Shown: positions 6,527 to 38,683 of the stretch, piece after piece
How the letters are laid out: each line of letters starts with the position of its first letter
How positions within the stretch are numbered: the first letter of the stretch is position 1
Sequence record: MN342151.1
From: Escherichia phage vB_EcoM_3HA14
Strand: one strand, 5' to 3'
DNA: 64,000 nt
Notes under the pieces: generated by a model
What the model was told of the DNA's origin: nothing
What the model saw: the letters and a program-made list of their open reading frames with translations, nothing else
Databases searched by the model: none
Translations under genes and position numbers: made by a program

Positions 6527-6545
6527 GATTTCTCCAAAATAAAAA

Positions 6546-6565: not shown

Positions 6566-6578
6566 TAATCATATACGC

Positions 6579-6890: not shown

Positions 6891-6901
6891 TTTAATAATC
6901 C

Positions 6902-7159: not shown

Positions 7160-7174
7160 TTTAATATCTCTCTT

Positions 7175-7495: not shown

Positions 7496-7943
7496 ATTCT
7501 TTTCTCCAAAGTATTTGATTGTCAGACCCACGATACGGTTTGTGTGTCGGTTTAGAAGCATCATACTTACCATCTATTACCACGTCAACATATTTCATCA
7601 CTTCTAAGTTGATTTTTTCATGTAGCTGGTAACCTGTCCATAACCATATAGATTTGTCTGGGTATACGGTTTTAATCCGCTTACAGATATTTGTTACTGT
7701 CTGAACATTCCTATCATCAAGTGGCTCTCCACCAAGGATAGATAGACCACTGATTCCATCATCATTCATTATCTGCATAATGCCATAAAGGTTTGCATAA
7801 GTAAACTCTTTACCAGCATTAAACTTCCAAGATTCCTTGTTAAAACAACCTTCACAGTGATGTTTGCAGCCAGCTACAAAAAGACTGACACGAGCACCTT
7901 CACCGTTCGCTGTATCGAATTTTCGTATTTCCATGTAGTTCAT
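7458..7943 (-). CDS. nrdG: anaerobic ribonucleotide reductase activating protein (radical SAM)
   Basis: CxxxCxxC cluster (CKHHCEGC) near N-terminus, about 160 aa; ORF track start is GTG, ATG at 7941-7943 with GAGGTG RBS. Confidence 0.8.
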   Translation of the reverse strand: MNYMEIRKFDTANGEGARVSLFVAGCKHHCEGCFNKESWKFNAGKEFTYANLYGIMQIMNDDGISGLSILGGEPLDDRNVQTVTNICKRIKTVYPDKSIWLWTGYQLHEKINLEVMKYVDVVIDGKYDASKPTHKPYRGSDNQILWRKEYGWQGDCQWRAE

Positions 7944-8335
7944 TAGCACACCTCAACTTCAAAACTTACATGTTTTGTGACGTACTCTTCACAATGCTCT
8001 TTAATAAATTCCTGAAGCAGTTCATCTTCCTGAGCACGAGTCATCAAAGCAACATACTTTGGATTCATTGTTTGCTGAATACTGTAGAAAGACATGTCAC
8101 CAATTTCTGTACCATATGAATCTGACCATGTTCCAGTTACTACTAAGACTTTATCACTCAACTCCGTAGGGAGTTCAATGTCATCATCCTTTGCGTCATC
8201 AATAACAGAGTCAGTTATTAAAAGAGTACATGCTATGTAAAACTCTGAGTATTTTCTGTGAGTTTTCTCACAAGAGCCACACTCTAAAGCATAGTCTTTA
8301 AGCCAGTTCATTTGATTTTTATTTAATTTAGTCAT
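7943..8335 (-). CDS. hypothetical protein
   Basis: 130 aa ORF, ATG with AAGGAAAG RBS. Confidence 0.45.
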   Translation of the reverse strand: MTKLNKNQMNWLKDYALECGSCEKTHRKYSEFYIACTLLITDSVIDDAKDDDIELPTELSDKVLVVTGTWSDSYGTEIGDMSFYSIQQTMNPKYVALMTRAQEDELLQEFIKEHCEEYVTKHVSFEVEVC

Positions 8336-8431
8336 TTCTCTTTCCTTTCAATGTGTTGTATAAAAGCCCTAACAAGAAACCTAGTAAGACAGAGCCTACT
8401 AAGGTGACTAACAAGAATGTCTTAATCATCA

Positions 8432-8689
8432 TCAATACCACCATATTGTTTGGTTGTTATCACAAACATACAGGTACTCTGTCCCGATTTGTGGGACGAT
8501 GATTGTAGTGTTGCCTGATATGACTGTCATATAGTATAGGTAATTTCTACTCTGTGACGTTTGCTGACAATGGTTTGCAGTCATCCAAAGCTTAGTGTGG
8601 TAACTGTCATACACAGCAAAACCTATCAGAATTACTAATGCAATCCCAAGAAACCATAACCAAAATTTAGGCCAAAAATCATAGCTCAT
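8432..8689 (-). CDS. hypothetical membrane protein
   Basis: 85 aa, one hydrophobic helix (FLGIALVILIGFAVY). Confidence 0.4.
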   Translation of the reverse strand: MSYDFWPKFWLWFLGIALVILIGFAVYDSYHTKLWMTANHCQQTSQSRNYLYYMTVISGNTTIIVPQIGTEYLYVCDNNQTIWWY

Positions 8690-8758
8690 ACGTTAATTCC
8701 ATACTCAATAAAAAAGGTGATGTAAGCCTATCAAGACCTACACCACCTTGTCAACTAC

Positions 8759-23815: not shown

Positions 23816-24074
23816 GATTGCCTCTGTTAAGTATCTATAAAGATTTTAATCTCTTATCTTTATGTATGTTATACATATAACTTTAAAGCTTTTTAAAAGC
23901 TATTAAAAATCTTTTAAGACTTTTAAAGAAACTGTATAGTTAATCTATAAAGGGAGTCTATTAAGATAAAACCCACTTCGAAAAGACTAACACCTTGTCA
24001 AGTAGTTTGTCAACTTGCTTTTTGAAGAAAATTGCTGTAGGGTATTATCCAGAATGATTTGAGAGGGAGTAAAA
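23816..24074. promoter_or_regulatory. divergent AT-rich intergenic control region
   Basis: 259 nt between divergently oriented gene blocks; repeated TTTTAAA(A)G and TCTATAAAG motifs, two TTGTCA boxes; no promoter assigned with confidence. Confidence 0.4.
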
Positions 24075-26774
24075 ATGGACAATGTAGATTTCGAAAAATT
24101 ACATTTGGTTGGTGATACAGAAACTGATGGGTTGCTCCTTGAGTTTACAAAAGCACACGTAATGGCTTTCGCAGACTATAAAGATGACAGTGATGAACCT
24201 GCTGTGTGGGTTTTCACTGATGAGCCTATTCTTGGTCACAAGTATACAAAATACATCAAAGGTGGTCTGCGTGAAGGTGTTGAGTTTGCACTGAAAGCTA
24301 AACGTCTTTGTATCCACAATGGTCTTGGTTATGACTGGTGGGTGTTTAATCACATTGCACCTGACCTGTGGAACTTTGAGAATCCTAAGTGTAAGCCTTG
24401 GGGTGACTTCTTTCAGGATTCACTTATCCAATCTCGCGTACAGTGGATGGATAGACCTACGCCAAAAGGTTACAAAGGTGCTCATGGTTTAGCTGCATGG
24501 GGTGCTCGTGTAGGTGTCCGTAAACCAGAGATTGAAGAGTGGGGTGTCTGGAATGCAGAGATTCTTACTCGTGTTGTAGAAGATATTAAGATTAACGCCA
24601 AAACTAAACGTGCTCTTGATAATGAGTACCTCAAGCTTAAGAAGTGTGGTGTTGACACTTATGAAACCTACATGCGAGCTAAAGAAACATCCTTCTGGAT
24701 GAGTCAGCAAGCTATCAACGGTTGGAAAGCTGATGTAGAACTTATGCAGTTCCACGTTAAAGAACTTGACAAGTTAACTAACGAGTTGGCTGCTGAGGTT
24801 GAACCACACCTTCCACCAACTATTAAGACAAAAGGTAAAGTCACAGGTGAAGAATTTGCCAAGTCTTGGAACGAGTATGTAGATACATTTGGTCACGTTG
24901 ATGGTTTGAAAAGGATTACCAAGTACCCTAAGACAAAGTATCGTGAACAGATGCGTGAAGGTGAGTTGAAGCAGTACCCTATCAAGCCGTATGGTAAGCC
25001 AACTACAAAGATTTTTAATGTTGAGAAGCGCAACTGCTACACTCCAACTAACACGGTCACAAAAGAAGAGTACCCTGAAGGTTTTGTAGCAATGAAAGAT
25101 GCTCGTGCAGTTTGTAATGAACTGAATGAGAAGATTGGCAAGAAGTGTAAAGATTGGAAGCCAGTTAAGACTGTGAAAACTGTGAAGTACTACAACGTTC
25201 ACGTTGTTAATCACTTTGAGTTAGAGTCTAGTCGCTACACTGGTTTGATTGATGCACCATTCACACCAATTGAGTTTGAAGTTTCACGAATGACTCAGGT
25301 AGCTGTGGTGAAGGATTACTTAAAATCCGTTGGCTGGATTCCTGATGATTGGAACTATAAAAAAGATTCTGACGGTCGTCCTATCAAGGTTTGCAGGTTC
25401 AAAGACAACAAAAAGATGATTCGCAAACATCCTAAGTGGGATGAGATGGTTGAACGTTGTGGGTTGAACTATATTGAGCATGAAGGTGTCTACTACATCG
25501 AGCATAACTGGTCTGTTAAGAAGTACACAGATGTGCTTGAGCCTTGCTTGATTAGGACTTCACCAAAGCTTACAGAATCTTCTTATGATACAATCGAAGG
25601 TGAGCTTGGACAGAAGATTGCGAAGTACTATACTTTGATGCACCGACGCAGGACTATCGAGAACTCAAAGGATGATGAGAAAGGTTGGCTGAACCAGATT
25701 CGTCCAGATGGTCGTTTGAGTGCAGGTGCAATGGTGTTTGGTACTTCTACTGGACGTATGACTCAGTATGGTATTGTGAACGTACCTTCTGGTGCTGCTG
25801 TGTACGGTGAGCCAATGAGGGCAGTGTGGATTTGTGAAGAGGGAACCAACGTAGTATCTGTTGATATGAACTCTGCACAGCTTGTACTACTCTGTAACTT
25901 CATGGGTGATAAAGACTTCACCAAAGCGGTAACAGAGGGTAAAGAAGAGATTGAGTTTGTCCGTCAAGAGGATGGAAGATACTACTGTAAACACTTTGAC
26001 CAGTATCTGAATCCAGAGATTGACAAGTATCTGCGTTACGACTCTGAAAACGATTTGTACGTAGTTTACTCAGGGACTGATGCTCACACTCTGAACAGTA
26101 TCTACTTCAGCCTTAATGATGAGCAAGATATCTTGACTTGTCGTGCTACTCAGGATGAGAATCTTCTTCATGAGATTAGCAAGGGACGTAAGAAAGCTAA
26201 GAATGGTATCTATGCTTTGTTGTTCGGTGCAGGTGATGAGAAGTTTGCTAAAACAATTAAAGCAGCAACTACTCAGGAAGGTGCATTGACTAAGCAGACT
26301 TACTTTGTGCGTTTACCGAAGATTAAGAAACTGTTAGACAACTTGGAAGCTGATTTCAAAGCAACTAAGAAAGCACTTGAAGAGGTGTTTGGTAAAACTG
26401 CTGCAATCTCTAAAGGTGGTTTTGTGAAGGTTGCTGGGGCTTGGCTGTGGTGTAAGTCTCCACACAAACTCTTGAACTATTTGCTGATGGGTTCAGAAGC
26501 ACAAGTTCAGAATGAAGCAATCAACCTTGCATGTCGTCGTATGATTGACGAAGGTTTGATGAAGTTGAATGGTCGTAAACCAGCTATTGGTGCTCGCTTA
26601 CTCTGTGCTTACCACGATGAAACAAGCTGGGAATGTCCAGAGAGCATGACAGCAGATGTGAAAGCAGTAACTGACTGGTATTATGGTCAAGCATCTAAGA
26701 ACCTTGGGCTAAGAAAAGAGACATTGGTCACAGGTGCAGGGAAAGTTGGTAAATCGTGGCTTGAAGTCCACTAA
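24075..26774 (+). CDS. DNA polymerase, family A, with N-terminal 3'-5' exonuclease
   Basis: 899 aa; Exo I-like DTETDG; motif A VVSVDMNSAQLVLL, motif B RKKAKNGIYALLFG, motif C YHDE. Confidence 0.85.
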   Translation: MDNVDFEKLHLVGDTETDGLLLEFTKAHVMAFADYKDDSDEPAVWVFTDEPILGHKYTKYIKGGLREGVEFALKAKRLCIHNGLGYDWWVFNHIAPDLWNFENPKCKPWGDFFQDSLIQSRVQWMDRPTPKGYKGAHGLAAWGARVGVRKPEIEEWGVWNAEILTRVVEDIKINAKTKRALDNEYLKLKKCGVDTYETYMRAKETSFWMSQQAINGWKADVELMQFHVKELDKLTNELAAEVEPHLPPTIKTKGKVTGEEFAKSWNEYVDTFGHVDGLKRITKYPKTKYREQMREGELKQYPIKPYGKPTTKIFNVEKRNCYTPTNTVTKEEYPEGFVAMKDARAVCNELNEKIGKKCKDWKPVKTVKTVKYYNVHVVNHFELESSRYTGLIDAPFTPIEFEVSRMTQVAVVKDYLKSVGWIPDDWNYKKDSDGRPIKVCRFKDNKKMIRKHPKWDEMVERCGLNYIEHEGVYYIEHNWSVKKYTDVLEPCLIRTSPKLTESSYDTIEGELGQKIAKYYTLMHRRRTIENSKDDEKGWLNQIRPDGRLSAGAMVFGTSTGRMTQYGIVNVPSGAAVYGEPMRAVWICEEGTNVVSVDMNSAQLVLLCNFMGDKDFTKAVTEGKEEIEFVRQEDGRYYCKHFDQYLNPEIDKYLRYDSENDLYVVYSGTDAHTLNSIYFSLNDEQDILTCRATQDENLLHEISKGRKKAKNGIYALLFGAGDEKFAKTIKAATTQEGALTKQTYFVRLPKIKKLLDNLEADFKATKKALEEVFGKTAAISKGGFVKVAGAWLWCKSPHKLLNYLLMGSEAQVQNEAINLACRRMIDEGLMKLNGRKPAIGARLLCAYHDETSWECPESMTADVKAVTDWYYGQASKNLGLRKETLVTGAGKVGKSWLEVH

Positions 26775-26835
26775 TAGTATTGACAAGGTGCTCATGGAAG
26801 AGTACCTTATACTATATATTGTATAGGAGACTTGT

Positions 26836-27036
26836 ATGACTATTTCAGAAATTGAAGTTCAACTGCAATGTGCTGGATATTCTCAAAGTGAGATTGAGGC
26901 TATGTGCATCATCATTTGCAGTAGCCATAAGCACCTCAAGCTTTCTAATGAAAATCTTCGCAAGGTTGATATTTTTATTGCTGGAGGTAAGATTATCAAG
27001 GATAAGACAGGCTACCTTAAAGGTGAACGTCTATGA
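26836..27036 (+). CDS. hypothetical protein
   Basis: 66 aa ORF. Confidence 0.4.
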   Translation: MTISEIEVQLQCAGYSQSEIEAMCIIICSSHKHLKLSNENLRKVDIFIAGGKIIKDKTGYLKGERL

Positions 27037-27242
27037 GCCATCGTGGAAGAACTCATCTCGCCATGATGCAAGGTGCTTCAAAAGAGACTATCAAGAATCG
27101 GAAGAAAACTCTTTTTGACAGAATGAATAGACTCATCGATAATGCAAGCCTACCTAACTCTGAAAAGGTTTTCTTGAAAGGGAATCTGAAGAGTATTGCA
27201 CAGGAACTTATTGACATTGAATTTTGGAGACACCAAAAATGA
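27033..27242 (+). CDS. hypothetical protein
   Basis: 69 aa ORF, overlapping stop/start with neighbours. Confidence 0.4.
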   Translation: MSHRGRTHLAMMQGASKETIKNRKKTLFDRMNRLIDNASLPNSEKVFLKGNLKSIAQELIDIEFWRHQK

Positions 27243-27430
27243 CATACGAAGAAGCTCTCGAAGCTATGAAACAGGGCAAGAAAGTTCGAAATGAAAATTT
27301 CACATCTGATGAGTTCTTTGAAATAAAAGACGGAAAGGTTGTATGTGAAATGGGTTACCCAATGGCTGCATGGTACAAGGGGGAACCTTGGCAGAAAACT
27401 GGATGGAGTATCTTTAATGAAACTTTATAG
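27224..27430 (+). CDS. hypothetical protein
   Basis: 68 aa ORF. Confidence 0.4.
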   Translation: METPKMTYEEALEAMKQGKKVRNENFTSDEFFEIKDGKVVCEMGYPMAAWYKGEPWQKTGWSIFNETL

Positions 27431-27549
27431 CATTTGGGGAAGAGTTGGTGAAGGTTATGACTGGACTCTTCTTAAAACAAATGTTAAAAGTAACGAGATA
27501 GCTTACTACAAAATCTATTACCATAAAACTTTTAGAGAGGTAGAGTATC

Positions 27550-27801
27550 GTGAGCAATAAAGAGCAAGAAGCTTTAGCAATCTTCAAGAGCGAAGACAAA
27601 TCAATAGCTTTTGTCTCAGAGGCTTGGTGCAGGGATTTGGGGTATGATTGGTATCTCTTCTTATGCGCTAAGAAAGATGTTAAACCAGTTGATGAAACCC
27701 GATTCAAAGAACTGTATAATATCTGCCAAGAGGGTTATGAAGAACATTACGAAGGTTCTTTGAATCCTGTAAATTCAAAAGCTTCAGATTTATTTTATTG
27801 A
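27550..27801 (+). CDS. hypothetical protein
   Basis: 83 aa ORF. Confidence 0.4.
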   Translation: MSNKEQEALAIFKSEDKSIAFVSEAWCRDLGYDWYLFLCAKKDVKPVDETRFKELYNICQEGYEEHYEGSLNPVNSKASDLFY

Positions 27802-27811
27802 GAGGTTTGAA

Positions 27812-28057
27812 ATGTTAAAATTATTGATACCAGCTTTAGTAGTCCTACTGGTTGGATGTAACCCTTCTTATGAGAATAAGGATGCTTCTTACAGACTTCC
27901 TCCAGAAATGCAAGACTGCAAGATTTATAAACTTAATGGTGATGCCATTAGCAGGGATGTTATTGTAGTTCGCTGCCCAAATTCTCAGACGACAACTTCT
28001 TACAAGTATGGGAAGAATAGTCAGTCACACACCACAGTTTTTGATGGGGGATATTAA
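27812..28057 (+). CDS. putative lipoprotein (signal peptide plus lipobox LLVGC)
   Basis: MLKLLIPALVVLLVGC N-terminus; 81 aa; two further Cys in the mature part. Confidence 0.5.
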   Translation: MLKLLIPALVVLLVGCNPSYENKDASYRLPPEMQDCKIYKLNGDAISRDVIVVRCPNSQTTTSYKYGKNSQSHTTVFDGGY

Positions 28058-28058
28058 T

Positions 28059-28265
28059 ATGCAGGTTCTGGTAAACTTTATCTATAAGTATGAAAACATC
28101 TTCAGCACTATGACTGTAGCTCAACGCAATCCAGTTATTCCACGAGAAGGGGAGACTGTTGAGATTAATGATTGGAACTACAGAGTTGAAGAGGTCAAGC
28201 ATAAACTTAAAGATGGTTATGACCACCAAGTTGTAAATGTGTATTTAAAAGGTAAGTGGCAATGA
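28059..28265 (+). CDS. hypothetical protein
   Basis: ORF 28008..28265 trimmed to internal ATG at 28059 preceded by GGGGGA. Confidence 0.35.
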   Translation: MQVLVNFIYKYENIFSTMTVAQRNPVIPREGETVEINDWNYRVEEVKHKLKDGYDHQVVNVYLKGKWQ

Positions 28266-28795
28266 GTGAAAAAAGGTTATTCAAAGAGTCCTACAGTAAT
28301 CTGAAGATGGGTTATCAAGGCTACTCAATACCTTGGTATGAAGATAAGAAAAAACAGTATTCAAACCCTTTTATATATCAACCTGTAAAACTCTCTGTAC
28401 TGGAGTTTTGGCATGAAACTGGAGCTACGCCATACCAATTTGACAACATGGAATATGCGCGTATTTGTAAAAGTCTTGGTGCAAGACAAGTTGATAATAT
28501 CATTGAACATTTGAAGGATTTGTATAAAGATTTTGCTGGATACTTATACGAGAAACAGTTTGGGGAGTGCTTAAAATACCCAGATGGGTCACTTGTTCTG
28601 CTCTCATACATGTCTAATGGTAACATAAAAATTGCATACAAAGACCTGTGTGATAACTACTATGATTTTTATACTAGATTGAGACTACCATACCCAGATA
28701 GCTCCTTTTCCTTATCTAGCAATGCAATGACGCACTCTGGGAATATTGTTTCTGTTGAAAAATTAAAAAAGACGTGGGAGAAGAAAAATAAATGA
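28262..28795 (+). CDS. hypothetical protein
   Basis: about 177 aa; ATG at 28262 preceded by AAGG. Confidence 0.45.
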   Translation: MSEKRLFKESYSNLKMGYQGYSIPWYEDKKKQYSNPFIYQPVKLSVLEFWHETGATPYQFDNMEYARICKSLGARQVDNIIEHLKDLYKDFAGYLYEKQFGECLKYPDGSLVLLSYMSNGNIKIAYKDLCDNYYDFYTRLRLPYPDSSFSLSSNAMTHSGNIVSVEKLKKTWEKKNK

Positions 28796-29892
28796 CAATT
28801 CTGTACAAACAAAATAAAGATGGTTCTTTCAACGTCTGGTCATGTGTTGCTGTAGGTGATAAAGTCGTCACAACTTATGGTAAAGAAAATGGCAAGATGA
28901 TGTTTGAAGAGTACACAGCAGAGCCAAAGAACATCGGTAAGAAGAATGAGCGTAATGCTGAACAGCAAGCTCTTTTTGAAGTTGCTGCTAAGTACAAGAA
29001 GCAGGTTGACCGTAAAGGGTATGCTTACACAAAATCTGAAGCAGAGAATGTTGAAAAGGTTGGTGTACAGCTTGCTCAGGATGCTTCCAAGATAAGTCAC
29101 AAGAAGTATCTGGTATTTCCTGCCGATGCTCAACCTAAACTTGATGGGGTTCGTTGCAGGATTTCAAGAGATGCTGACTCAGAAAGTTTTACGGCATATT
29201 CTCGTGAGAACACGGTATACAACATTCCTGTAGAGTTGATTCCTGATGTTCTTCTTATGCTGAAACTGCACAAAGATGTTGAAGATTTCGATGGTGAGAT
29301 TTATGCTCATGGTTGGGACTTGGAAGATATTGTATCTATGATTAAGAATGCTGACAATCCAGACCGTCACCTTCTTAAATTCTACTGGTATGATATCTGT
29401 GACAAGACTAAATCTTGGCCTGAGCGTCGTGAAGTTATTGATAATTCACCAATCGTTGAACTCGGTGATGCTTGCAGGGTTGTACCTGTTCAGACAATCC
29501 GTGTTAACTCTTGGGAAGAATTTGATAATGCTCATGACAACTGGGTTAAACTCAAGTTTGAAGGGGCAATGTATCGGTCAATCTCACCAGATTCGTTCTA
29601 TGAGTGTGGTCATCGCTCTTACTTCCTGATTAAGCACAAGAAGATGCACACACAGGAATTTAAAGTAACGGGTGTAAAGACTGATAAACGTGGTCATGGT
29701 AAGTTCGTTGTAGAGACTCTTCCTAACGTCTTTGTAGATGTTTCATGGAAAACTACACACGAGAAGAAAAAGTATCTTGCTGAACATCCTGAAGAGTTTA
29801 TCGGGAAGCCTTTAACGGTTCAGTTCCAGAAGATGACTCGTAAGGGTTCTTTACAGTTCCCTGTTGGGCTAGTAATTCGAGACTATGAATAG
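28792..29892 (+). CDS. ATP-dependent DNA ligase
   Basis: 366 aa; adenylation motif I KLDGVRC (KxDG) at the expected position; size typical of T7-type ligases. Confidence 0.8.
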   Translation: MTILYKQNKDGSFNVWSCVAVGDKVVTTYGKENGKMMFEEYTAEPKNIGKKNERNAEQQALFEVAAKYKKQVDRKGYAYTKSEAENVEKVGVQLAQDASKISHKKYLVFPADAQPKLDGVRCRISRDADSESFTAYSRENTVYNIPVELIPDVLLMLKLHKDVEDFDGEIYAHGWDLEDIVSMIKNADNPDRHLLKFYWYDICDKTKSWPERREVIDNSPIVELGDACRVVPVQTIRVNSWEEFDNAHDNWVKLKFEGAMYRSISPDSFYECGHRSYFLIKHKKMHTQEFKVTGVKTDKRGHGKFVVETLPNVFVDVSWKTTHEKKKYLAEHPEEFIGKPLTVQFQKMTRKGSLQFPVGLVIRDYE

Positions 29893-29900
29893 AGGTTAGT

Positions 29901-30050
29901 ATGTTTAGCACAATTATCCTGTTTGTTTTTGTTGTTTTATCATTATCTTACTTCATAAGTAAACTTTTAAGCATAACATACAAAGCAGCCTTAGCCCTTA
30001 CTCTGTTGTCATTTGCAGTAAATGCAGCAGTTAGAATGTATTTAGTATAA
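29901..30050 (+). CDS. putative small hydrophobic peptide (not in ORF track)
   Basis: ATG at 29901 after GAGG; about 49 codons encoding MFSTIILFVFVVLSLSYFISKLL...; below the track length cut-off. Confidence 0.3.
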   Translation: MFSTIILFVFVVLSLSYFISKLLSITYKAALALTLLSFAVNAAVRMYLV

Positions 30051-30055
30051 AATTG

Positions 30056-30083
30056 TTGACATGAGTAACCTGACGGGTATACT
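30056..30083 (+). promoter_or_regulatory. sigma70-type promoter (TTGACA-N16-TATACT)
   Basis: consensus -35 TTGACA at 30056-30061 and -10 TATACT at 30078-30083, about 50 nt upstream of the 30134 start. Confidence 0.5.
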
Positions 30084-30084
30084 A

Positions 30085-30106
30085 CCTATATAGAAAATTA
30101 TATAGG
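30085..30106. promoter_or_regulatory. operator-like perfect palindrome CCTATATA-N6-TATATAGG
   Basis: 22-bp palindrome immediately downstream of the -10, nested in a 9-bp inverted repeat (30070-30078 / 30108-30116). Confidence 0.4.
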
Positions 30107-30133
30107 AACCCGTCAGAAACCTCGGAGGTGTTT

Positions 30134-30514
30134 ATGAAAAAGTTACTTGTTGGTGTCATTGCTATTGGTATGAGTTTTAGTGCAGCAGCTATGAAGATGC
30201 CTGAAGCAAACTTTAATGGTGTCGCTTTAGAATCTTGTAAGATTGTACAGAAAATCGCTTCAAATGCTGGAGAGTTGACTAAACCGTTGTCTGCTCAGAC
30301 TGTTCAAGAAATGACTGATAAGATGGTTGACTACAACTACCATTTTATGGGAGATTACTATGACAGATTAGCAGATGAGATGGTTACTCAGAACGTTGAC
30401 CTTCTTGATAGCAAAGGTATTGAGACTGTAGAAGATGTGAAAGACAATTTTATGCGTGAGTCTTTCAAAGGTGTTCAATACTTTATTGAAAATCGTCACT
30501 GCATGGGTTTATAA
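30134..30514 (+). CDS. hypothetical secreted protein (N-terminal signal peptide)
   Basis: ATG at 30134 with GGAGG RBS; MKKLLVGVIAIGMSFSAAA signal-like N-terminus. Confidence 0.5.
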   Translation: MKKLLVGVIAIGMSFSAAAMKMPEANFNGVALESCKIVQKIASNAGELTKPLSAQTVQEMTDKMVDYNYHFMGDYYDRLADEMVTQNVDLLDSKGIETVEDVKDNFMRESFKGVQYFIENRHCMGL

Positions 30515-30516
30515 TC

Positions 30517-30720
30517 ATGAAGAAGAACATCTGTAGAGCAGACTACGGTGAAGTAGTCGATGATGACGGAGTAGTTATTTACAGAGTTTGGGCAAGTGAT
30601 TATTCAACCGTTGTAGAGTCTTTAGATAACTACATCAATGGGACTCGTGAAAACGTCAGAGCAACTAATCTTGATTCGTTAATAGACACTTCTCGAAAAC
30701 GGAGAAAGAAAGATGAATGA
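30517..30720 (+). CDS. hypothetical protein
   Basis: 67 aa ORF. Confidence 0.4.
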   Translation: MKKNICRADYGEVVDDDGVVIYRVWASDYSTVVESLDNYINGTRENVRATNLDSLIDTSRKRRKKDE

Positions 30721-31012
30721 AGTCTTTGACCCATATGCACCTCAAGATTCTTGGGAGGCTGATAGAGAGGCTGAAATGGAGAATTATGTCTGTCCAATGG
30801 ATATAGAAGAGATGAAAGACTTTGTATCTTTCAGATTCTCTAAAGAGATTGAGAAGCTAAAACTTTCTCAGGCTCAAGTAGCAACTGTTTGTGAAATCTC
30901 ACAGAGTCGTGTATCAAATATCATTAACGACCCTCAAAAGATTTCTTTAGAGTACATGCTTAATGCTTGTACAAAACTTGGTGTAAATTTTAACTTAAGG
31001 CTGGCAGATTAA
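30713..31012 (+). CDS. putative HTH (XRE-like) DNA-binding protein
   Basis: LSQAQVATVCEISQSRVSNIIN resembles a helix-turn-helix segment. Confidence 0.4.
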   Translation: MNEVFDPYAPQDSWEADREAEMENYVCPMDIEEMKDFVSFRFSKEIEKLKLSQAQVATVCEISQSRVSNIINDPQKISLEYMLNACTKLGVNFNLRLAD

Positions 31013-31013
31013 T

Positions 31014-31373
31014 ATGAAACGTGAAAATGCAATCTTTAACGATAACTTTGCAATTGGCTTCTATGGTAAACCAACTCCAGCAGAGAAGCTTTATGGTAAT
31101 GCAATTCTGGAGACCTTGAAAGAGGTTTACACAACTGGTGGTATGAAGCATACTGAAGCAAACCGTGTAAGAGGTTATATGGCAATTGGCTCTGCAATCT
31201 CTAACATCAAACTTGAAACTACAAGTGCTAAAAAGGTACGAGACCACTTCATCAAAGAGTTGTCAGAGAACCTAGATGGTGTTGAAGTCAAGGCTGTCTG
31301 GTTAGATGTTGATGGTCACAACTATACAACTTTTGTGTTTAAAAATGAGGATATCAAATGTCTCTTCCCTTAA
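31014..31373 (+). CDS. hypothetical protein
   Basis: 119 aa ORF. Confidence 0.45.
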   Translation: MKRENAIFNDNFAIGFYGKPTPAEKLYGNAILETLKEVYTTGGMKHTEANRVRGYMAIGSAISNIKLETTSAKKVRDHFIKELSENLDGVEVKAVWLDVDGHNYTTFVFKNEDIKCLFP

Positions 31374-31861
31374 AACTCGATTTATACTTTGGGTACAGTG
31401 TATTGCAAGGCAGCATACTATCACTACCAAAGTCAGATTATCGTTGTGATTTAGGTTCTGTGAAACGTGCATCACACTTTAACAACAATATCTTAGGCTT
31501 GCAGACACTTCACAGGTGGCTTGAGGAAGATGGACGGTTAAATGAATATCTTCACCAACTAGAACTAGCCAAAGAAGAGGGGCATATGGGTTGGAATTTA
31601 CTACCCCATCTGTACAAACCTGCAAGTCCTATGGAGATACGCTATAACGAACAATCTGTTGATAGTTATAACAAATATAATATAACTATTGGCTCAAGAC
31701 CTTGGAAGGAGTATGGAAAGCTCCGTGAAATCATTATACAGACTATTGGAAAGCGTGTAGCAAAAGGTATTGCTTATGATGAAAAGGTTGACTGGAATAC
31801 ACAAAAGTGTATAAAATTCTTCAAGTACGATAATGACAAAGATACTTTTGTAGAGGTTTAA
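31358..31861 (+). CDS. hypothetical protein
   Basis: 167 aa ORF. Confidence 0.45.
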   Translation: MSLPLKLDLYFGYSVLQGSILSLPKSDYRCDLGSVKRASHFNNNILGLQTLHRWLEEDGRLNEYLHQLELAKEEGHMGWNLLPHLYKPASPMEIRYNEQSVDSYNKYNITIGSRPWKEYGKLREIIIQTIGKRVAKGIAYDEKVDWNTQKCIKFFKYDNDKDTFVEV

Positions 31862-31862
31862 C

Positions 31863-32378
31863 ATGAAAATTGGAATTACCCTTTGCCAGCCTGAAGCAGA
31901 GTTCTTGAAATCAATGTTGTCTGAGCATATGAAGTCCACAAATCACACTGAGAAGACATTCTTGATTGACACTAACTATGATGCAGGAACTATTGAGTTC
32001 ATTGATGAAGACACTGCTGATTCTCTGTGTGTTCTTCCTGCTCACTTATTTACTCCAGAGCTACGTGAAAGTCGTTCTATTGAAGTTAATCTGGAGCCAA
32101 GTATTGAACTGTACTCAGATACACAGTATCCAAGAAGCTTTAAAGCATTGCTAAACATCTTCGTAGCTGATATTGTAGAGATTGTTAAACAGACTGAAGG
32201 TGGTCATGTAGTAACTGCTGAGTATGAACAAGGCACTATCAAACTGACAGGTGACTTTGGTTCTATGAGTTTCTTAGACTTTGTTCCAAAACACTTTGAA
32301 GACTTTCTATCAAGTGAAGTTGATGACCTCGATTTCATACTAAAATTTGAACGCACTTTTAAGGTAAACAAAAAATGA
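31863..32378 (+). CDS. hypothetical protein
   Basis: 171 aa ORF. Confidence 0.45.
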   Translation: MKIGITLCQPEAEFLKSMLSEHMKSTNHTEKTFLIDTNYDAGTIEFIDEDTADSLCVLPAHLFTPELRESRSIEVNLEPSIELYSDTQYPRSFKALLNIFVADIVEIVKQTEGGHVVTAEYEQGTIKLTGDFGSMSFLDFVPKHFEDFLSSEVDDLDFILKFERTFKVNKK

Positions 32379-32647
32379 AAATCTTAAGCGGAGTATCACA
32401 GTGTTACATGAATGATGGTGAGCCAGTTAAATGCTGCCATTGTGGAGGTGAGAACTTCCAAGGTGAAGTTTCAGAGATTGTCTCTGGCAATATCGCTGAA
32501 GAGTACACCCGTTGCTGTGGATGTGGAAAGATTTTATCTTTTTGGGCTTATGGAAGTTATGAACCACAACCTCACCTTATTTACCATCCAAACAGGATTG
32601 TGAAGCGTGTTCTGAACTGGTTCATTATCAAAGGATTTACAAAATGA
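32375..32647 (+). CDS. hypothetical zinc-ribbon protein
   Basis: CCHCGG...CCGCGK paired Cys clusters. Confidence 0.4.
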   Translation: MKILSGVSQCYMNDGEPVKCCHCGGENFQGEVSEIVSGNIAEEYTRCCGCGKILSFWAYGSYEPQPHLIYHPNRIVKRVLNWFIIKGFTK

Positions 32648-33189
32648 TTAAGTTAATTTTTGCAAGTGGTATTAACGGGGAGTTTGGCACAGCTACTGGA
32701 ATGCCTTGGCCTCGTAATAAACAAGATATGGCAGAGTTTAAGAAGCAGACTGTTAACCAGTTAGTCTTGATGGGTAGCGAAACTTGGAAGACTCTTGGGA
32801 GCAAGCCTTTGCCAAACCGTGAGAATATTGTCTTGACAAACTCTCTTGACTTTTACGGTCTGGACTTTAAAGATGACTCTCATTGTAAAGCAAGAGTTAA
32901 GCCTGAAGCTTTTGGGGCTTTCCTGAAGTATATTGATAGCTCTATTGATGAAGATGTTTTAGTAATCGGTGGAGCCAATATCTTAATCTCAGCTTTGCCG
33001 TATGCTGACGTAGTTTTCCACAGTGTTATTAAGGAAGTTACTGAAGAGGCTACTGTCAAGCTACCTTATGAGGGTTTCTTCCAGTACTTGTATGACACAG
33101 AGTTATTTGCTAAAGTACAGTCCAAACCTTCAGAAGATAAGTCTGTTGTGTTTGATACCTATGTTCCACAAGTAAGAGGACGTTTCTAA
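32644..33189 (+). CDS. frd: dihydrofolate reductase
   Basis: 181 aa; GMPW, LVLMGSETW, PLPNRENIVLT motifs in DHFR order. Confidence 0.8.
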   Translation: MIKLIFASGINGEFGTATGMPWPRNKQDMAEFKKQTVNQLVLMGSETWKTLGSKPLPNRENIVLTNSLDFYGLDFKDDSHCKARVKPEAFGAFLKYIDSSIDEDVLVIGGANILISALPYADVVFHSVIKEVTEEATVKLPYEGFFQYLYDTELFAKVQSKPSEDKSVVFDTYVPQVRGRF

Positions 33190-33190
33190 T

Positions 33191-34090
33191 ATGTCACAAG
33201 CAGATGTAAGCTACAAAGCTATTTTAAACCATGTTTTATCAGTTGGTGAGTTGCGTAAAACCCGAACTGGCTCAGTGATTTCAACCTTTGCTCCACCTGA
33301 GTTCCGTTTTGATATGCGTAGTGGATTTCCATTAATCACCTCAAAACAAACATTCATGCGTCAAGTCCTCGGTGAAGCATTATGGTTTATGAACGGTGAA
33401 AACCAACTAGGCCATTTGCGTTACAGAACTTGGGGAGAGAACGACGGAGAGCGTTGGACTATCTGGACAGATGATTTTAAACGTTGGTTGAAAACAACCT
33501 ATGCTACAGAGAATGATTGGCTGGAGGATGCTGGAGGAAGAATCTATGGAGTCCAATGGAGAGCCTACGAAGGTCATGGTGGCGTTGTTGTAGACCAGTT
33601 GAGTAATCTTGTAGAGAAGATGAGAAAGTCTCCTACAGACCGTTACATGCTCGTTAACGCATGGAATGCAGCAGATATCTCAAGTAACTCTATGGCATTA
33701 GCACCTTGCCATGTACTTTTTCAGATTTATATCTCGAACACTAATGAGGTGGATTTGAAATGGTATCAGCGTTCTTGTGATACGTTCTTAGGGTTACCAT
33801 TTAACATTGCTTCCTATGCCTTTATCTTGGAAGTGTTGTGTAAACTGACGGGATATACACCGCGATATCTGGTAGGGACTTATGGTGATACTCAAATCTA
33901 TCAGAACCATATGTCACAGGTTTTTCAGCTTCTTGGCAATGAAGAGTTCCCAGCACCTAAGTTTGAAATTCATCAAGATTTGAAGTCTCTTGAAGACTTG
34001 AGACATATGACAGCAGATGACTTCCTAGGTGGGTTGAAAGGGTATAAACATGCTGGTAAGATTGAAGCACCTTTATCAGTAGGTAAGTAG
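33191..34090 (+). CDS. thyA: thymidylate synthase
   Basis: 299 aa; TRTG, active-site LAPCH, DLKWYQRS and FLGLPFNIASYA motifs. Confidence 0.85.
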   Translation: MSQADVSYKAILNHVLSVGELRKTRTGSVISTFAPPEFRFDMRSGFPLITSKQTFMRQVLGEALWFMNGENQLGHLRYRTWGENDGERWTIWTDDFKRWLKTTYATENDWLEDAGGRIYGVQWRAYEGHGGVVVDQLSNLVEKMRKSPTDRYMLVNAWNAADISSNSMALAPCHVLFQIYISNTNEVDLKWYQRSCDTFLGLPFNIASYAFILEVLCKLTGYTPRYLVGTYGDTQIYQNHMSQVFQLLGNEEFPAPKFEIHQDLKSLEDLRHMTADDFLGGLKGYKHAGKIEAPLSVGK

Positions 34091-34100
34091 AAACAAAAAA

Positions 34101-34126: not shown

Positions 34127-34501
34127 TTATTTCTTTTTAGTGCTTTGGGTATTTTGTTCTGTAATTGCTTGCAAAGCTGATACAGATTGTGCTAAGTTGT
34201 TAACACTGTCAGAGAACTTATCAAGGGTCTTAGTCAACTTAGCGTTTTCTCCCTTAACATTCTCTAGCTGAACTTTCTGGTTCTCCATCCCTAATTGTAG
34301 GAGCTTCATATCAGATTGTAAGTCACGAATAGCTGAATAGTTACCTTTTGAGTAACCATCCAACTGCTGTAACTTATTTGTGATAGACACTTCCTGTTTA
34401 CCATCAGAGACCTGCATTGTAGTGTACATACCAATTACACTGAAAATACCTACAACGATTGCACCAATATTATTCTTAAAAGCATCTTCAAGCCACTTCA
34501 T
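34127..34501 (-). CDS. membrane-anchored coiled-coil protein (possible i-spanin-like lysis protein)
   Basis: N-terminal TM helix (IGAIVVGIFSVIGMY) then heptad-like coiled coil; function inferred from topology only. Confidence 0.3.
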   Translation of the reverse strand: MKWLEDAFKNNIGAIVVGIFSVIGMYTTMQVSDGKQEVSITNKLQQLDGYSKGNYSAIRDLQSDMKLLQLGMENQKVQLENVKGENAKLTKTLDKFSDSVNNLAQSVSALQAITEQNTQSTKKK

Positions 34502-34695
34502 TATTTCTCACCTTTAAAAGCCTTTTCCAAGGTATCTACAAATTCATCATCAATAGGTGTATCTGTTTTGCTCGCAAGGTATCTTGCAAGCTTAAAGAAC
34601 ACTTTTTCAATCATGTATTCACTGAGAAGAGAAAAAAGAAGCTTCCAAAAGAATGCCCCAAGGTTTTTCATGAGGATTGCTAGAATGGTTGGCAT
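34501..34695 (-). CDS. small membrane protein (possible holin)
   Basis: 64 aa, hydrophobic N-terminus, charged C-terminus; start overlaps stop of downstream gene. Confidence 0.3.
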   Translation of the reverse strand: MPTILAILMKNLGAFFWKLLFSLLSEYMIEKVFFKLARYLASKTDTPIDDEFVDTLEKAFKGEK

Positions 34696-34781: not shown

Positions 34782-37160
34782 TTATGCAGTTCTTACCCAA
34801 GCCATTAATTTAATGTAAGTGTTCTGAACACTGAATGCTGCACCAGAACCAGTTGCACCAGTGTTACCACTAAATGTGTGGTTGTGAGCACCAATACCTA
34901 CACCGTGACCGTGAGCACCTACCCAACTTGTTCTCCCTGTCCAAGTTCTTGATGCGTAGAAGTTGACAGGTGTACCATAAGTGAATTGTGAACCAGTATA
35001 ACCTCTAGAGGCTTGTGAACCTGAGATAGCGAATGCCCCACTTGCTGTATAGAAGCTGTTTGCATCACTTCTGAAGAAACCAAAGTCACCAGAGATTTCC
35101 ATGTTACCTCTGTCATGGTCGTGAGCACCTTGAGCGTCTGTGTACTTAGTACCATAATCAAATGTACTTGTTGTTCCAGAGAAGCTATGAGTGTGCGCAG
35201 GAATATGACCAACACTTAGAGCCACCGTATCAGAACCACCAAGACCTTTCACATCGGAACCATTTGCAGAACCAATCCTAATAGTTCTGTTTGCACCTTC
35301 TGTCAAGTAAGTCCAAGTAGTGCCTGGGAAAGCTGTATTTGGGTTGACATTAGAAGCAAAGAACGTCACAATACCAACTGGATACACTTTCTTAAGGTCT
35401 GTAGAATCAGTTACCGCAGAGGCAATACGTTGGTCTACTTCAGCCTTGGTGTAAGCACCAAGTTCAGAGGGTGTAGGTTTGTCTTGGTCTGTGTAGATTT
35501 TAGCCCAAACCTCTTCAAAACCAAATCCATCCCTTGCTGTTCTATAATAGATTCCAGTATTCTTGTAGTTAAATTTAAACTGTGCAGTCGGTGTAGATGT
35601 ACCAACTCCAAGGTGCATTTGGTAAACTAAGTGAGTAGACCCACCAGTTGAATTTGTAACACTGTACAAACCTGTTTTTGAATTCCAAGCAATACCTGTT
35701 GCATCACCTACTTCTGTTCCCGTTCCAGATACACCAGACAACATATATCTTGAGTTTGCAGCAGATTGTGTGTAGTATCTTGAGTCAAAGTTTGACCAAT
35801 CTGTAGGCTGAACCTGACCAGTTACTGATACGCTTCTGTTGAACATGAAAGTGTCAGCAATTTCTAACTGTACACCACCACTTGAATAGTTGTACAGGAA
35901 CAGAGAATTTGGCCTACTGCCTTCACCGTTACCAATATACCAACGTCTGTTGCCGTCTGCATTAGCGCCAACAATATACAGTGATGAATTAGCTGTCCCA
36001 CTTTGCAATGTGAAAGCCGCATCTGTAGTAACAATAGTTTGTGGGTTAGTAAAAACGTTTGCAGCATTAGTTCTTGCAAGCACGTTCGTTAAAGAGCTTG
36101 GAACATATCTTGTATCAAAGTTTGCGAAGTCACTTGGTTTTACCTGACCAGATACATTAATAGCTTTGTTAAATGAAAACTCTGTAGCAATTTTCAAGTT
36201 AACATTTGTCATCTGGTTTGCTAAAACAATCTCAGACTGCGTACCATCTGGTTGACCCACATACCAAGCACCTGTCCCAGCACTGTTGTAACCACGCATA
36301 AATAATGCAGCATTCTCTGAAGCCGCTCTTAAGTTAAGTGCATTACTATCTGCAATAACATAAGTCTTCCCGTTGAAGTTGTTAACCCCAACAAAGTTAT
36401 TACTTGCATTAAGTCTTGCAAATCTCTGGTCAGCAGCAGTCTGTGTAAAGAATCTTGCATCAAGGTTGTTCCAGTTATTAGGCTGAACCTGACCATTGAT
36501 TTCAAAGTTCTTGTCAACACTAACAGAGTTTGTACCAAGAGTCAACGTAGCACCTTTGCTGTTAACTAATGTAACATCAGTCCCAGAAGTCAAGTTACCA
36601 ACTGTGAATCTCAAAGCATTATTTGAGTCTCTTGCTTCAATATATGCTCCACCATCTGGTAAGATACTTTTAAGTGTCAAACCAACACCGTTGATATTAA
36701 TGATTTGTCTTGCCAAGAAAGTATTTTCAGTTTCCTTCATAGCATATCTTGCATCATTTTCAGTGTTAGTTCTCATACCTAATTCATTAGGAGATGGTTT
36801 ATTAAGTGTGTGATAAACTGTTGCAGACCTTGTGGCATCATTTACAGTTAATCTTAAAGCACTTGCATTAATTCTAAAGGTCTTGGCAGTGTCACCGAGA
36901 ATAACTTCAGAAGAACCTGTTGGGTCTAATAAGTCTTTTCCACCGTATCTTAATTTAACGATGCCAAGATTTCCTGTCATATCCCCACCAGTTAGTTGTA
37001 AGAATCTTTCTAGTTTGAAAGAGGCAAGGAAATTTGCATAGGTCATTTTACGGTCTTCATCACCTAGCATATCAGACCTTTTGATAATTCTTAGGTGAAG
37101 TAAATCTTCTGAGCGAACTGTATCAATACTGTTTAGCTCACTTAGCTTATATTCAGCCAT
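34782..37160 (-). CDS. tail fiber protein with His-rich (HxH) C-terminal tip
   Basis: 792 aa, Gly/Ser/Thr/Asn-rich; C-terminal HTHSFSG...GAHGHGVGIGAHNHTFSG...WVRTA shared with the next ORF. Confidence 0.65.
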   Translation of the reverse strand: MAEYKLSELNSIDTVRSEDLLHLRIIKRSDMLGDEDRKMTYANFLASFKLERFLQLTGGDMTGNLGIVKLRYGGKDLLDPTGSSEVILGDTAKTFRINASALRLTVNDATRSATVYHTLNKPSPNELGMRTNTENDARYAMKETENTFLARQIININGVGLTLKSILPDGGAYIEARDSNNALRFTVGNLTSGTDVTLVNSKGATLTLGTNSVSVDKNFEINGQVQPNNWNNLDARFFTQTAADQRFARLNASNNFVGVNNFNGKTYVIADSNALNLRAASENAALFMRGYNSAGTGAWYVGQPDGTQSEIVLANQMTNVNLKIATEFSFNKAINVSGQVKPSDFANFDTRYVPSSLTNVLARTNAANVFTNPQTIVTTDAAFTLQSGTANSSLYIVGANADGNRRWYIGNGEGSRPNSLFLYNYSSGGVQLEIADTFMFNRSVSVTGQVQPTDWSNFDSRYYTQSAANSRYMLSGVSGTGTEVGDATGIAWNSKTGLYSVTNSTGGSTHLVYQMHLGVGTSTPTAQFKFNYKNTGIYYRTARDGFGFEEVWAKIYTDQDKPTPSELGAYTKAEVDQRIASAVTDSTDLKKVYPVGIVTFFASNVNPNTAFPGTTWTYLTEGANRTIRIGSANGSDVKGLGGSDTVALSVGHIPAHTHSFSGTTSTFDYGTKYTDAQGAHDHDRGNMEISGDFGFFRSDANSFYTASGAFAISGSQASRGYTGSQFTYGTPVNFYASRTWTGRTSWVGAHGHGVGIGAHNHTFSGNTGATGSGAAFSVQNTYIKLMAWVRTA

Positions 37161-37205
37161 TTATAAATCCTCTTTCTAGGGGCTGTGTAGCCCCTTATAA
37201 AATAA

Positions 37206-38381
37206 TTACGCAGTTCTCTTCCAAACATATACAACATAAGAAGGTTGCTCAATATTAAATGCTTGTCCAGCACCAAATGCACCAGTTGTACCTGAGTGAG
37301 TGTGCTCAGAAGATTGAACTGTCACAGTACCTGAGTGTCCATGTGAACCAATTGCAACACTGTGTCCATGTGCTCCGATATACACACTGTGAGAGTGGTT
37401 ACCACCAACTGAAGAATTAACGTTGAAGGTATGTGTGTGAACCCCATCAAAGTCTGTATATGACGCATTACCAACACCTGCATCAGCCGTTGCCGTAATA
37501 GCATTCACACCACCCCTGTCAGAACCCCTCAATGGAATCCTGTGGCTGTGACTACCAGCACTGCTTACAGAACCATTAACGTTATGAGCGTGGCTTCCAG
37601 AGTCGTTTGTGGCCTTAGAACCATAATCAAAACTTGATGTGCTCTTAGTCCCATAGTCAAAGTTAGAAATTACTACTGTTGCATTGTGGGAGTGTCCACC
37701 ACCAGTTAGTAATACAGAGTGTGTGTGACTTGGAATGTTATTTTGTGTAAGTGTTACAGTAGCAGAACCAAATACTGATTCTACAGGTCTTGTATCTGTG
37801 TCATAACCGACAAGAGACCTTCCTTTAGAAACTAACTCCCAAGTACCACCACAAAGTAAATATGTAGATGGGTTTGCAGGGTTAACTGACAAATGAATAG
37901 TACCGATTGGATAGCTATTCTGGATAGCTCTATATAAAGCATTCACAGCTTTTGCAGTAGCATACTTATCAGCGTCTTCAGAGTAAGAGTTTGAATATGT
38001 CCAGTTTTGAATATTAGACAAACCTACTTGAATCTTGTTAGTGTTGTGAGGGTTATTCTTGTCATTAATGTGATTCTGAATAAGGGCATTAACTTCATCA
38101 CTTGATAGAATATTAAGGTTCTGTCTAGCCTCTTCAACACTAACCACGTCTGACAAGTTATTAGCAGCCACTAATTGGAGCGCGTTAATAACATTACCAA
38201 GTTCTACGTGAACCTTTGTAACACCGTGTGGGTTATTTCTCAAAGATGCGTGTGGAGCAAGTAATTGCTCAAGTGTGCATCGTTTATCCTCAATACCTTG
38301 CTTAAGGTGAAAGATATCACTTAAATCAATAGGCAACGAGGCTTGAGGCAATGCACTAATTTGAATTTCACCTACTGGCAT
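37206..38381 (-). CDS. tail fiber protein (paralogous HxH tip)
   Basis: 391 aa; N-terminal repeats NNPHxxTKxxVxLxN; C-terminal HTHS...HSHN...GAHGHSVAIGSHGHSG...WKRTA. Confidence 0.65.
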   Translation of the reverse strand: MPVGEIQISALPQASLPIDLSDIFHLKQGIEDKRCTLEQLLAPHASLRNNPHGVTKVHVELGNVINALQLVAANNLSDVVSVEEARQNLNILSSDEVNALIQNHINDKNNPHNTNKIQVGLSNIQNWTYSNSYSEDADKYATAKAVNALYRAIQNSYPIGTIHLSVNPANPSTYLLCGGTWELVSKGRSLVGYDTDTRPVESVFGSATVTLTQNNIPSHTHSVLLTGGGHSHNATVVISNFDYGTKSTSSFDYGSKATNDSGSHAHNVNGSVSSAGSHSHRIPLRGSDRGGVNAITATADAGVGNASYTDFDGVHTHTFNVNSSVGGNHSHSVYIGAHGHSVAIGSHGHSGTVTVQSSEHTHSGTTGAFGAGQAFNIEQPSYVVYVWKRTA

Positions 38382-38383: not shown

Positions 38384-38683
38384 TTAGCTCCCTTTATATT
38401 CGTATGTGTAAAGGTTAGTCGTGCTAGTGGGTGCAGTTCCTGTTACTGTGTCAATTAATTCCCAACCATTGGAAACTAAATCAGGTTGCTCCGTAGCAAA
38501 TGAACGAACCTCTCCAACCGTACCATTTACTTTGTTAAGCAAATAGTTGATAATATAGTTAAACCACTGACGACCCATAGGTTCACCCCTTAATAGGCCA
38601 GTGGCTTGAATTTCTGGAGGTGGTAAAACTTTAAGCTGGTTACCATCAGCATCAACTGTATCTGTAGACCATGAAAGAGACAT
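38384..38683 (-). CDS. hypothetical tail-fiber-associated protein
   Basis: 99 aa ORF between baseplate and fiber genes. Confidence 0.35.

Follow-up and report, generated by a model that had tools for sequence, protein, structure and literature searches.

Two adjacent tail fiber genes in the genome of Escherichia phage vB_EcoM_3HA14 (MN342151.1) raise the question of whether fibers that end in similar histidine-rich tips also bind the same receptor. Both genes lie on the minus strand, as do all their parts described below, within the stretch of 64,000 nucleotides analyzed here (the window). One encodes the long tail fiber protein (LTF; 792 residues, 34782–37160, ending in AWVRTA), and the other encodes the short tail fiber protein (STF; 391 residues, 37206–38381, ending in VWKRTA). 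The original prediction, made from the letters of the window, held that the two proteins have unrelated N-terminal parts, that both end with arrays of HxH motifs (x being any residue) and a near-identical terminus (WVRTA/WKRTA), and that this common tip suggested module exchange and possibly the same receptor specificity. The open reading frames (ORFs), the termini, and the arrays are all as it described. The common specificity was not supported: STF and LTF are very probably the lateral tail fibers of a Felix O1-like myophage of the genus Mooglevirus, in which T4 gp37-type tips carry receptor-contacting heads unrelated to each other.

HxH motifs are found four times in LTF (His656, His680, His750, and His759, all within the last 140 residues) and nine times in STF (His219, His230, His264, His278, His315, His329, His338, His347, and His360). 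BLASTP aligned the two proteins in their C-termini only: residues 589–792 of LTF match residues 153–391 of STF with 29% identity, 17% gaps, and an E value of 5e-18. The identity between the tips is 29–32%. Smith-Waterman comparison with composition-preserving shuffles revealed an alignable register, with z scores of 19.5 for the whole tip, 11.6 for the return strands and the terminus, and 7.3 for the collar half alone. The collar half is neither repetitive nor rich in His and Gly, and its motifs are YPVGIVTFF..NPNT..GTTW in one protein and YPIGTIHLS..NPST..GGTW in the other. This means that the similarity is not a matter of Gly/His composition without register, because the collar and the return strands with the terminus align on their own. 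Profile-profile alignment of the STF family (62 orthologues) with the LTF family (120 orthologues) gave a probability of 99.8% and an E value of 1.6e-27.

An artifact of composition, in which HxH motifs arise by chance in low-complexity sequence rich in Gly, Ser, Thr, and His, has to be weighed at this point. The region does have such a composition, the alignments of the needle are gappy (the 17% given above), and the LTF count lies within the range of chance: in 2000 residue shuffles of its C-terminal segment, with a mean of 0.34 HxH, the maximum was four, so that one or more shuffles equaled the observed count. The same number of shuffles of the STF segment gave a mean of 1.4 and a maximum of six, and the observed nine were never reached. 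Most of the positions also show little or no variation in dozens of homologues. In the homologue alignments of both proteins, the HxH positions and the terminal Trp and Arg are mostly invariant or at least 90% conserved; Trp387 and Arg389 are invariant in STF, and the terminal Trp, Arg, and Thr are invariant in LTF. Chance or low complexity as an explanation is refuted by the shuffle z scores of the whole tip and of the collar alone, by the profile alignment, and by a gap-free register of 103 residues with T4 gp37; the probability left to it is negligible.

On the sequence evidence, the shared module is a T4 gp37-type tip, comprising the D10 collar and the D11 needle and head, and the likeness is one of homology beyond composition. 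Residues 146–363 of STF match the gp37 tip (PDB 2xgf) with an E value of 9.4e-25, and residues 245–347 correspond to residues 896–998 of gp37, the 103 residues mentioned above. The HxH motifs of STF and gp37 pair as 264/915, 278/929, 315/966, 329/980, 338/989, and 347/998, that is, at six of the seven T4 iron sites, and the head region of STF is equal in length to that of gp37. The match of LTF (residues 629–770; E = 4.6e-5) is weaker. Its four HxH fall on the gp37 sites 883, 915, 980, and 989, and the segments RGNMEI and ASRTW stand in for the two most distal metal layers of T4 (929 and 966). The number of motifs thus differs, seven in gp37 compared with nine in STF and four in LTF; the extra motifs of STF beyond the T4 register are proximal to the collar. 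The likening of the arrays to the metal-coordinating tips of T4-type fibers is therefore borne out as homology, from which metal binding may be inferred.

According to the domain limits of gp37 given by Islam et al. 2019 (PMC6957217), the collar D10 consists of residues 811–881 and 1010–1026, the stem of residues 882–931 and 960–1009, and the receptor-binding tip subdomain of residues 932–959. Mutagenesis in T4 mapped the receptor contacts to this tip subdomain (PMC6957217). The chain of gp37 leads from the collar through an outgoing HxH strand to the apical subdomain and back through a returning HxH strand to a collar strand, and the same order is seen in STF and LTF. The W.R.A terminus aligns with residues 1010–1026 of gp37, which belong to D10; gp37 itself ends in IVRLA. 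Since in the T4 map the chain follows the needle outward, builds the receptor-binding subdomain in mid-sequence, and comes back to the collar, what STF and LTF share (the collar, the HxH strands, and the terminus W.RTA) is, by analogy, scaffold. There are differences as well: gp37 is the distal part of a four-protein fiber, whereas STF and LTF each make up a fiber alone and are fixed directly to the baseplate, and the sequence of the gp37 head is unrelated to the heads here (z = -0.8), that of LTF having 67 residues.

In STF, the first half of the collar (residues 153–213; 37743–37925) is followed by the outgoing needle strand (residues 214–280; 37542–37742), which bears HxH 219, 230, 264, and 278, the last two aligned without gaps to gp37 915 and 929. 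The apical head, the predicted site of receptor contact, comprises residues 281–314 (37440–37541) and is aligned with gp37 without gaps: residues 281–308 correspond to the tip subdomain 932–959, and residues 309–314 correspond to the start of the returning stem. The returning needle strand (residues 315–362; 37296–37439) bears HxH 315, 329, 338, 347, and 360, the first four in register with gp37 966, 980, 989, and 998, and the C-terminal strand (residues 363–391; 37209–37295) leads back to the collar and contains the invariant Trp387 and Arg389. In LTF, the first half of the collar, of the gp10/gp12/gp37-D10 type (residues 589–650; 35211–35396), aligns with residues 153–213 of STF. The outgoing strand (residues 651–682; 35115–35210) contains HxH 656 and 680, aligned with gp37 883 and 915, as well as FDYGTK. 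The apical head cassette RGNMEISG...ASRTWTG, again with predicted receptor contact, lies between the two HxH sets (residues 683–749; 34914–35114). It is followed by the returning strand with HxH 750 and 759, aligned with gp37 980 and 989 (residues 750–761; 34878–34913), and by the C-terminal strand back to the collar, with its invariant Trp, Arg, and Thr (residues 762–792; 34785–34877).

The closest relatives of the region are the Shigella phages Sf19 and Sf17 (99.2% and 98.9% nucleotide identity; Ounavirinae, genus Mooglevirus), in whose records both genes are annotated as tail fiber protein. The two-fiber region of Sf14, also a Mooglevirus, is 96.9% identical and encodes proteins of the same lengths, 391 and 792 residues. 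The genes for STF and LTF are orthologous to those for gp52 and gp53 of Sf14 and for gp26 and gp27 of Bas63 (Felixounavirus), respectively, and stand in the same order. LTF matches the tail fiber family phrog_4277 along its full length (E = 0), and database proteins 100% identical to it exist; STF matches the tail fiber family phrog_2097 (E = 5e-131). Cryo-electron microscopy (cryo-EM) of Sf14 showed fibers of 430 and 630 Å, formed by gp52 and gp53 and folded back along the sheath (PMC11821841). In Bas63, both fibers have a T4-gp37-like collar, a six-stranded HxH needle, and a small head (PMC12609058). Trimer models docked in the cryo-EM maps of both phages support an intertwined homotrimer (PMC11821841; PMC12609058). 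The fibers of Bas63 have seven HxH in the short and six in the long protein (PMC12609058), compared with nine and four here; the count of the long fiber equals that of a 3+3 cassette in 13 aligned LTF sequences, described below. The Sf14 paper notes gp10-C-like and gp37-like domains, mentions HxH solely for the central spike, and does not recognize the needle/head topology of the fibers (PMC11821841). For other phage fibers, HxH metal sites have been widely discussed.

Outside the module, STF and LTF are unrelated in sequence (z = 1.2), as the original prediction had said of their N-terminal parts. This does not extend to a weak motif of about 25 residues, ...HLK/R...EDK/RR.T...L, which is common to residues 18–42 of STF and 15–46 of LTF (hhalign P = 0.0017). 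The region containing it is the baseplate-binding domain (PMC11821841; PMC12609058), which is reported as structurally conserved in Bas63 (PMC12609058). The common motif coincides with EDKRCT or EDRKMT, the baseplate-binding motif pointed out by the Sf14 authors (PMC11821841). It includes D.(L/I)(L/F)HL(R/K) and lies at 37023–37118 of the window in LTF and at 38256–38330 in STF. The N-terminal region with EDRKMT in LTF (residues 1–60; 36981–37160) is the most conserved part of this protein, with 0.81 identity in the 120 orthologues and a weak profile match to the N-terminus of STF; that with EDKRCT in STF (residues 1–60; 38202–38381) likewise shows 0.81 identity in the 62 orthologues.

The collar brings up a further alternative, in which the 391-residue protein is a gp10-like structural protein of the baseplate and its HxH region is purely architectural. 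The sole Pfam match of STF is the Gp10 C-terminal domain (63.7 bits; cutoff 27). Residues 143–229 match residues 440–522 of T4 gp10 (2fkk/5hx2) with an E value of about 5e-7, and the collar fold of T4 gp10, gp11, and gp12 (PF21939 Gp10_C, PF07484 Collar) is like the collar portion of STF. The similarity to gp10 is, however, confined to this C-terminal collar: the full architecture of gp10 (about 600 residues; its N-terminal and middle domains bridge gp7, gp11, and gp12) is not matched by STF. The match to the gp37 tip is much stronger (E = 9e-25) and includes the needle and head, which gp10 lacks and which here are inserted into the collar. The whole Gp10_C profile (139 positions) extends across residues 155–390 of STF; this means that the needle and head form an insertion inside the collar, as D11 does in D10 of gp37. 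In addition, the cryo-EM of Sf14 and Bas63 shows a fiber of 430 Å (PMC11821841; PMC12609058), and the hypervariability of the apex segment in orthologues would be expected where a fiber touches the host. A purely architectural baseplate protein is thus improbable.

The fiber model can be described as follows. Each fiber would be a homotrimer, as published for the orthologous proteins, anchored at the rim of the baseplate by the small N-terminal domain, with shafts of different length. The chain would leave the gp10/gp12-type collar outward as a β-strand, form the small apical head, and return to complete a six-stranded needle, and the last 30 residues or so (W.RTA) would join the collar again. 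All three chains would contribute to each HxH triplet, whose six imidazoles would bind one metal ion octahedrally on the three-fold axis, as Fe2+ is bound in T4; nine such sites are predicted in STF and four in LTF. The metal needle would serve as a rigid scaffold, and specificity would reside in the apical head.

Are the heads themselves similar? The head of STF (residues 281–314; 34 residues) and that of LTF (residues 683–749; 67 residues) differ two-fold in length, and similarity between them is undetectable (z = -0.9). The heads are also where orthologues vary. In the 62 STF orthologues, the identity to the window sequence is 0.16 in the head, compared with 0.54–0.81 in every other part, and the length of the head ranges from 13 to 72 residues. 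For LTF, the alignment contained 121 sequences (the window protein and its 120 orthologues), 106 of which have the cassette of the window, with 2+2 HxH and the 67-residue RGNMEISG...ASRTWTG head. An alternative cassette with 3+3 HxH is found in 13, including that of Citrobacter phage Michonne; the remaining two sequences are shorter, with two or three HxH. Both cassettes sit in a near-invariant frame of collar and C-terminal strand. In relatives that are approximately 93–97% identical overall, the substitutions in the head were compared with those in the rest of the tip by the Fisher test. They are clustered in the head of LTF in ESh19 (13 of 67 residues, against 1 of 106 in the rest; p = 2e-5) and KMM2 (13 of 67 against 3 of 106; p = 6e-4), and in the head of STF in KMM2 (5 of 34 against 1 of 205; p = 2e-4). 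Of the 259 matching phage records, 59 carry both window-type heads, and nearly all of these are from Escherichia or Shigella phages.

The hypervariability of the STF head, the clustering in some relatives, and the way in which the heads follow the host genus lead to the prediction that receptor contact takes place in the apical heads. Since the heads have no similarity and are the parts in which orthologues vary, different ligands for STF and LTF are likelier than one common specificity. Most likely, the phage would present two distinct surfaces for receptor binding, each probably directed at another part of the lipopolysaccharide (LPS) core. The Sf14 authors also consider that the two fibers may bind different receptors, probably the LPS core (PMC11821841). 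The same receptor specificity, which the original prediction had held possible in view of the common tip, finds no support here: the heads cannot be aligned, and the WVRTA/WKRTA terminus belongs to the collar.

A common specificity would be expected if a single tip had recently been exchanged or duplicated between the two genes, so that both fibers, though of different shaft length, bound the same receptor. The homology of the tips is real, and the DNA common to the two genes includes patches over the FDYGTK codons (28 nt, 86% identity) and the GAHxH codons, which could be recombination points, as well as patches over the C-terminal strand. Such a state can also exist: in an 87-kb phage contig from an ENA metagenome (L003, an Ounavirinae relative), the STF of 415 residues (6001–7248) and the LTF of 901 residues (7401–10106) have heads of one family, RG.M.I.G...AS(R/K)TW.G. 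Here the arrangement that the original prediction imagined is realized, though in another phage. In the window, the common DNA is limited to patches of 28–52 nt with 71–86% identity. Because the protein identity is approximately 30%, the DNA patches are short, and the Smith-Waterman score of the STF tip is higher with T4 gp37 (316) than with the tip of the neighboring LTF (222), nothing points to recent exchange between STF and LTF. The difference of the heads in sequence and length, as described above, also stands against it, and the terminus that looked shared is not part of a binding surface. Recent gene conversion between the two genes was rejected, since long DNA identity is absent. A recently exchanged tip with one receptor is quite improbable.

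Module exchange did find a place, not between the two genes in recent times but among phages and for the head cassette. The LTF-type head also occurs on short-fiber scaffolds: P0049 (z = 10), which comes from the metagenome contig, P0115, and P0105. Furthermore, tblastn found it in gp37 of two 170-kb T-even phages, vB_EcoM-ZQ3 (Mosigvirus; gp37 at L008 2229–5369) and CJY920 (match at PQ349265.1 67626–67823), with 66–73% identity. Overall, the gp37 of ZQ3 shares 67% identity with T4 gp37; its collar and C-terminus are T4-type, and a gp38 of the T4 type follows it. Its identity to LTF of the window is 64% in the head and 56–75% in the flanking needle strands, compared with 19% in the collar and 39% in the C-terminal strand. 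In other words, gp37 of ZQ3 and CJY920 is like LTF in the head RGNMEISG...ASR.W.G, bounded by FDYGTK and GIGAHxH, but unlike it in the collar and C-terminal strand, which are T4-type. Because ZQ3 gp37 matches LTF there and not in the collar, the mobile unit, judged from these alignments, is the head with its immediate HxH flanks rather than the whole tip. The head of gp37 in ZQ3 and CJY920 can accordingly be described, at the level of the alignments, as a cross-family transfer of a cassette bounded by FDYGTK and GIGAHxH.

Tail-fiber mosaicism has been known for decades, and Tetart, Krisch, and colleagues (1996–1998) reportedly proposed the conserved His boxes of T-even adhesins as recombination points, with which the mobile unit described here agrees. 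The ancestry of the cassette is common across families, and the head, with the conserved FDYGTK and GxHxH strands on its two sides, behaves as an exchangeable cassette among phages. It is proposed tentatively that the head, 35–70 residues lying between the FDYGTK and GxHxH strands, is a portable receptor-recognition cassette that moves between the short and long fibers of Ounavirinae and also between these fibers and gp37 of T-even phages. If this is true, LTF and gp37 of ZQ3 and CJY920 would recognize the same surface structure of E. coli and Shigella, and host range would be reprogrammable by swapping just the head cassette into any HxH needle.

Several observations weigh against the model of gp37-type tips with receptor-contacting heads. 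The clustering of substitutions is uneven: it is marginal in LTF of ESh22 (13 of 67 residues in the head against 9 of 106 in the rest of the tip; p = 0.059) and is not seen in STF of ESh19 (0 of 34 against 1 of 205; p = 1) or ESh22 (2 of 34 against 9 of 205; p = 0.66). The LTF head, with 0.66 identity in the 120 orthologues, is less variable than the β-helix repeats (0.55), so that the shaft may also contribute to the interaction with the host. The Gp10_C match of LTF, 22.9 bits, is below the cutoff of 27 bits; most LTF orthologues do carry PF21939. The Sf14 authors place the T4-like region of the short fiber at the fiber's center, not at the tip (PMC11821841). Finally, the structure predictions did not confirm the fold. 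AlphaFold2 was run with homologue alignments on the full STF and on residues 560–792 of LTF, as monomers of the expected intertwined trimer, and such models are not usable for the trimeric needle. The STF model has a predicted local distance difference test (pLDDT) score of 65, with 80–90 in the collar and below 50 in the head, and shows long paired strands at residues 222–242 and 346–365. The LTF tip model has a pLDDT of 50, and the heads are disordered in both models. Foldseek found nothing at E ≤ 0.001 for the STF model against the PDB; the best matches were gp10 C-terminal domains (E 0.05–0.13), which might be taken in favor of the gp10-like alternative, and C24 of a Bizionia phage was also among the non-significant matches. 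The predictions speak neither for nor against the assignment made from sequence.

The shafts of the two fibers differ in kind. That of LTF (residues 61–476; 35733–36980) contains three β-helix repeats of about 110 residues, matched by Pfam PF20744 gp37_trimer in three stretches, and in the DNA it appears as a repeat family (D1) with a spacing of 330/345 nt. It is followed by a gp37_C domain, similar to Mu tail fiber S (residues 477–588; 35397–35732; PF12604, 65 bits; PDB 8ju3, E = 2.7e-22 over residues 477–582). Thus, the Pfam matches of LTF are three gp37_trimer, one gp37_C, and a weak Gp10_C. STF has a short helical shaft (residues 61–152; 37926–38201) with NPH..TK.QVGL.N repeats, which are helices in the AlphaFold2 model. 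In the third β-helix repeat of LTF, a patch of about 80 residues (approximately residues 375–455; 35796–36038) has less than 50% identity in ESh19, KMM2, and ESh22, whereas the N-terminal domain and the first shaft segment of these phages are 98–100% identical to the window. This divergence most likely accounts for the two-piece megablast matches. The patch is a localized mosaic of the shaft and might serve as a second host-contact or sheath-docking surface. In Citrobacter phage BSwM KMM2 (L005 781–3156), codon 597 of the LTF gene, within the collar, is an in-frame stop, and the annotation divides the gene into two coding sequences; the reason is either an error of sequencing or truncation of the long fiber in a Citrobacter-infecting isolate.

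The two fiber genes close a block of baseplate genes, which comprises a Baseplate_J-like wedge protein, a baseplate protein, and an ORF of 99 residues. The last (38384–38683, minus strand) is a conserved small ORF between the baseplate protein and STF and belongs to phrog_4141, of unknown function; its place in the gene order matches that of the long-fiber platform protein gp25 of Bas63 and of gp51 of Sf14 ("homolog of T4 gp11?"). Beyond the fibers there are two small membrane-protein ORFs and then a plus-strand block with thymidylate synthase and dihydrofolate reductase. The small ORFs, of 64 and 124 residues, lie directly downstream of LTF (34127–34695, minus strand); one carries the annotation putative holin, and in PHROGs their function is unknown. 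From about 24000 to 34100 of the window, the GC skew is positive, compared with negative elsewhere; the right part of this block, from about 31.9 kb, is the plus-strand cluster with dihydrofolate reductase and thymidylate synthase and borders on the structural genes of the minus strand.

In T4, gp37 needs gp38. No gp38 homologue was found in the 64-kb window by tblastn with T4 and ZQ3 gp38 (best E = 1.3), and neither the STF nor the LTF gene is followed by a fiber chaperone gene. Dependence on chaperones of the gp38/gp57A type is an accessory trait of T4 and not part of the tip fold. The Sf14 authors likewise report the absence of chaperone homologues (PMC11821841).

The fiber architecture was already known for the genus from the work on Sf14 (PMC11821841) and Bas63 (PMC12609058), published in 2025, and the present results leave the current understanding unchanged. 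What is added is the exact register of the HxH motifs with the iron sites of T4, the nine and four predicted metal sites in Mooglevirus, the hypervariable head of STF, the two cassettes of LTF, and the LTF head common to gp37 of T-even phages. One correction follows for the reading of such tips: the arrays of conserved histidines belong to the scaffold, as does the C-terminus, by the analogy with T4, and the receptor-binding surface is predicted in mid-sequence of the tip, so that common HxH tips do not imply common specificity. For host-range engineering of Felix O1-like phages of Shigella and E. coli, the targets would be residues 683–749 of LTF and 281–314 of STF, not the C-terminus, and the fact that gp37 of T-even phages can carry the LTF head suggests that ready-made donor cassettes may be at hand.

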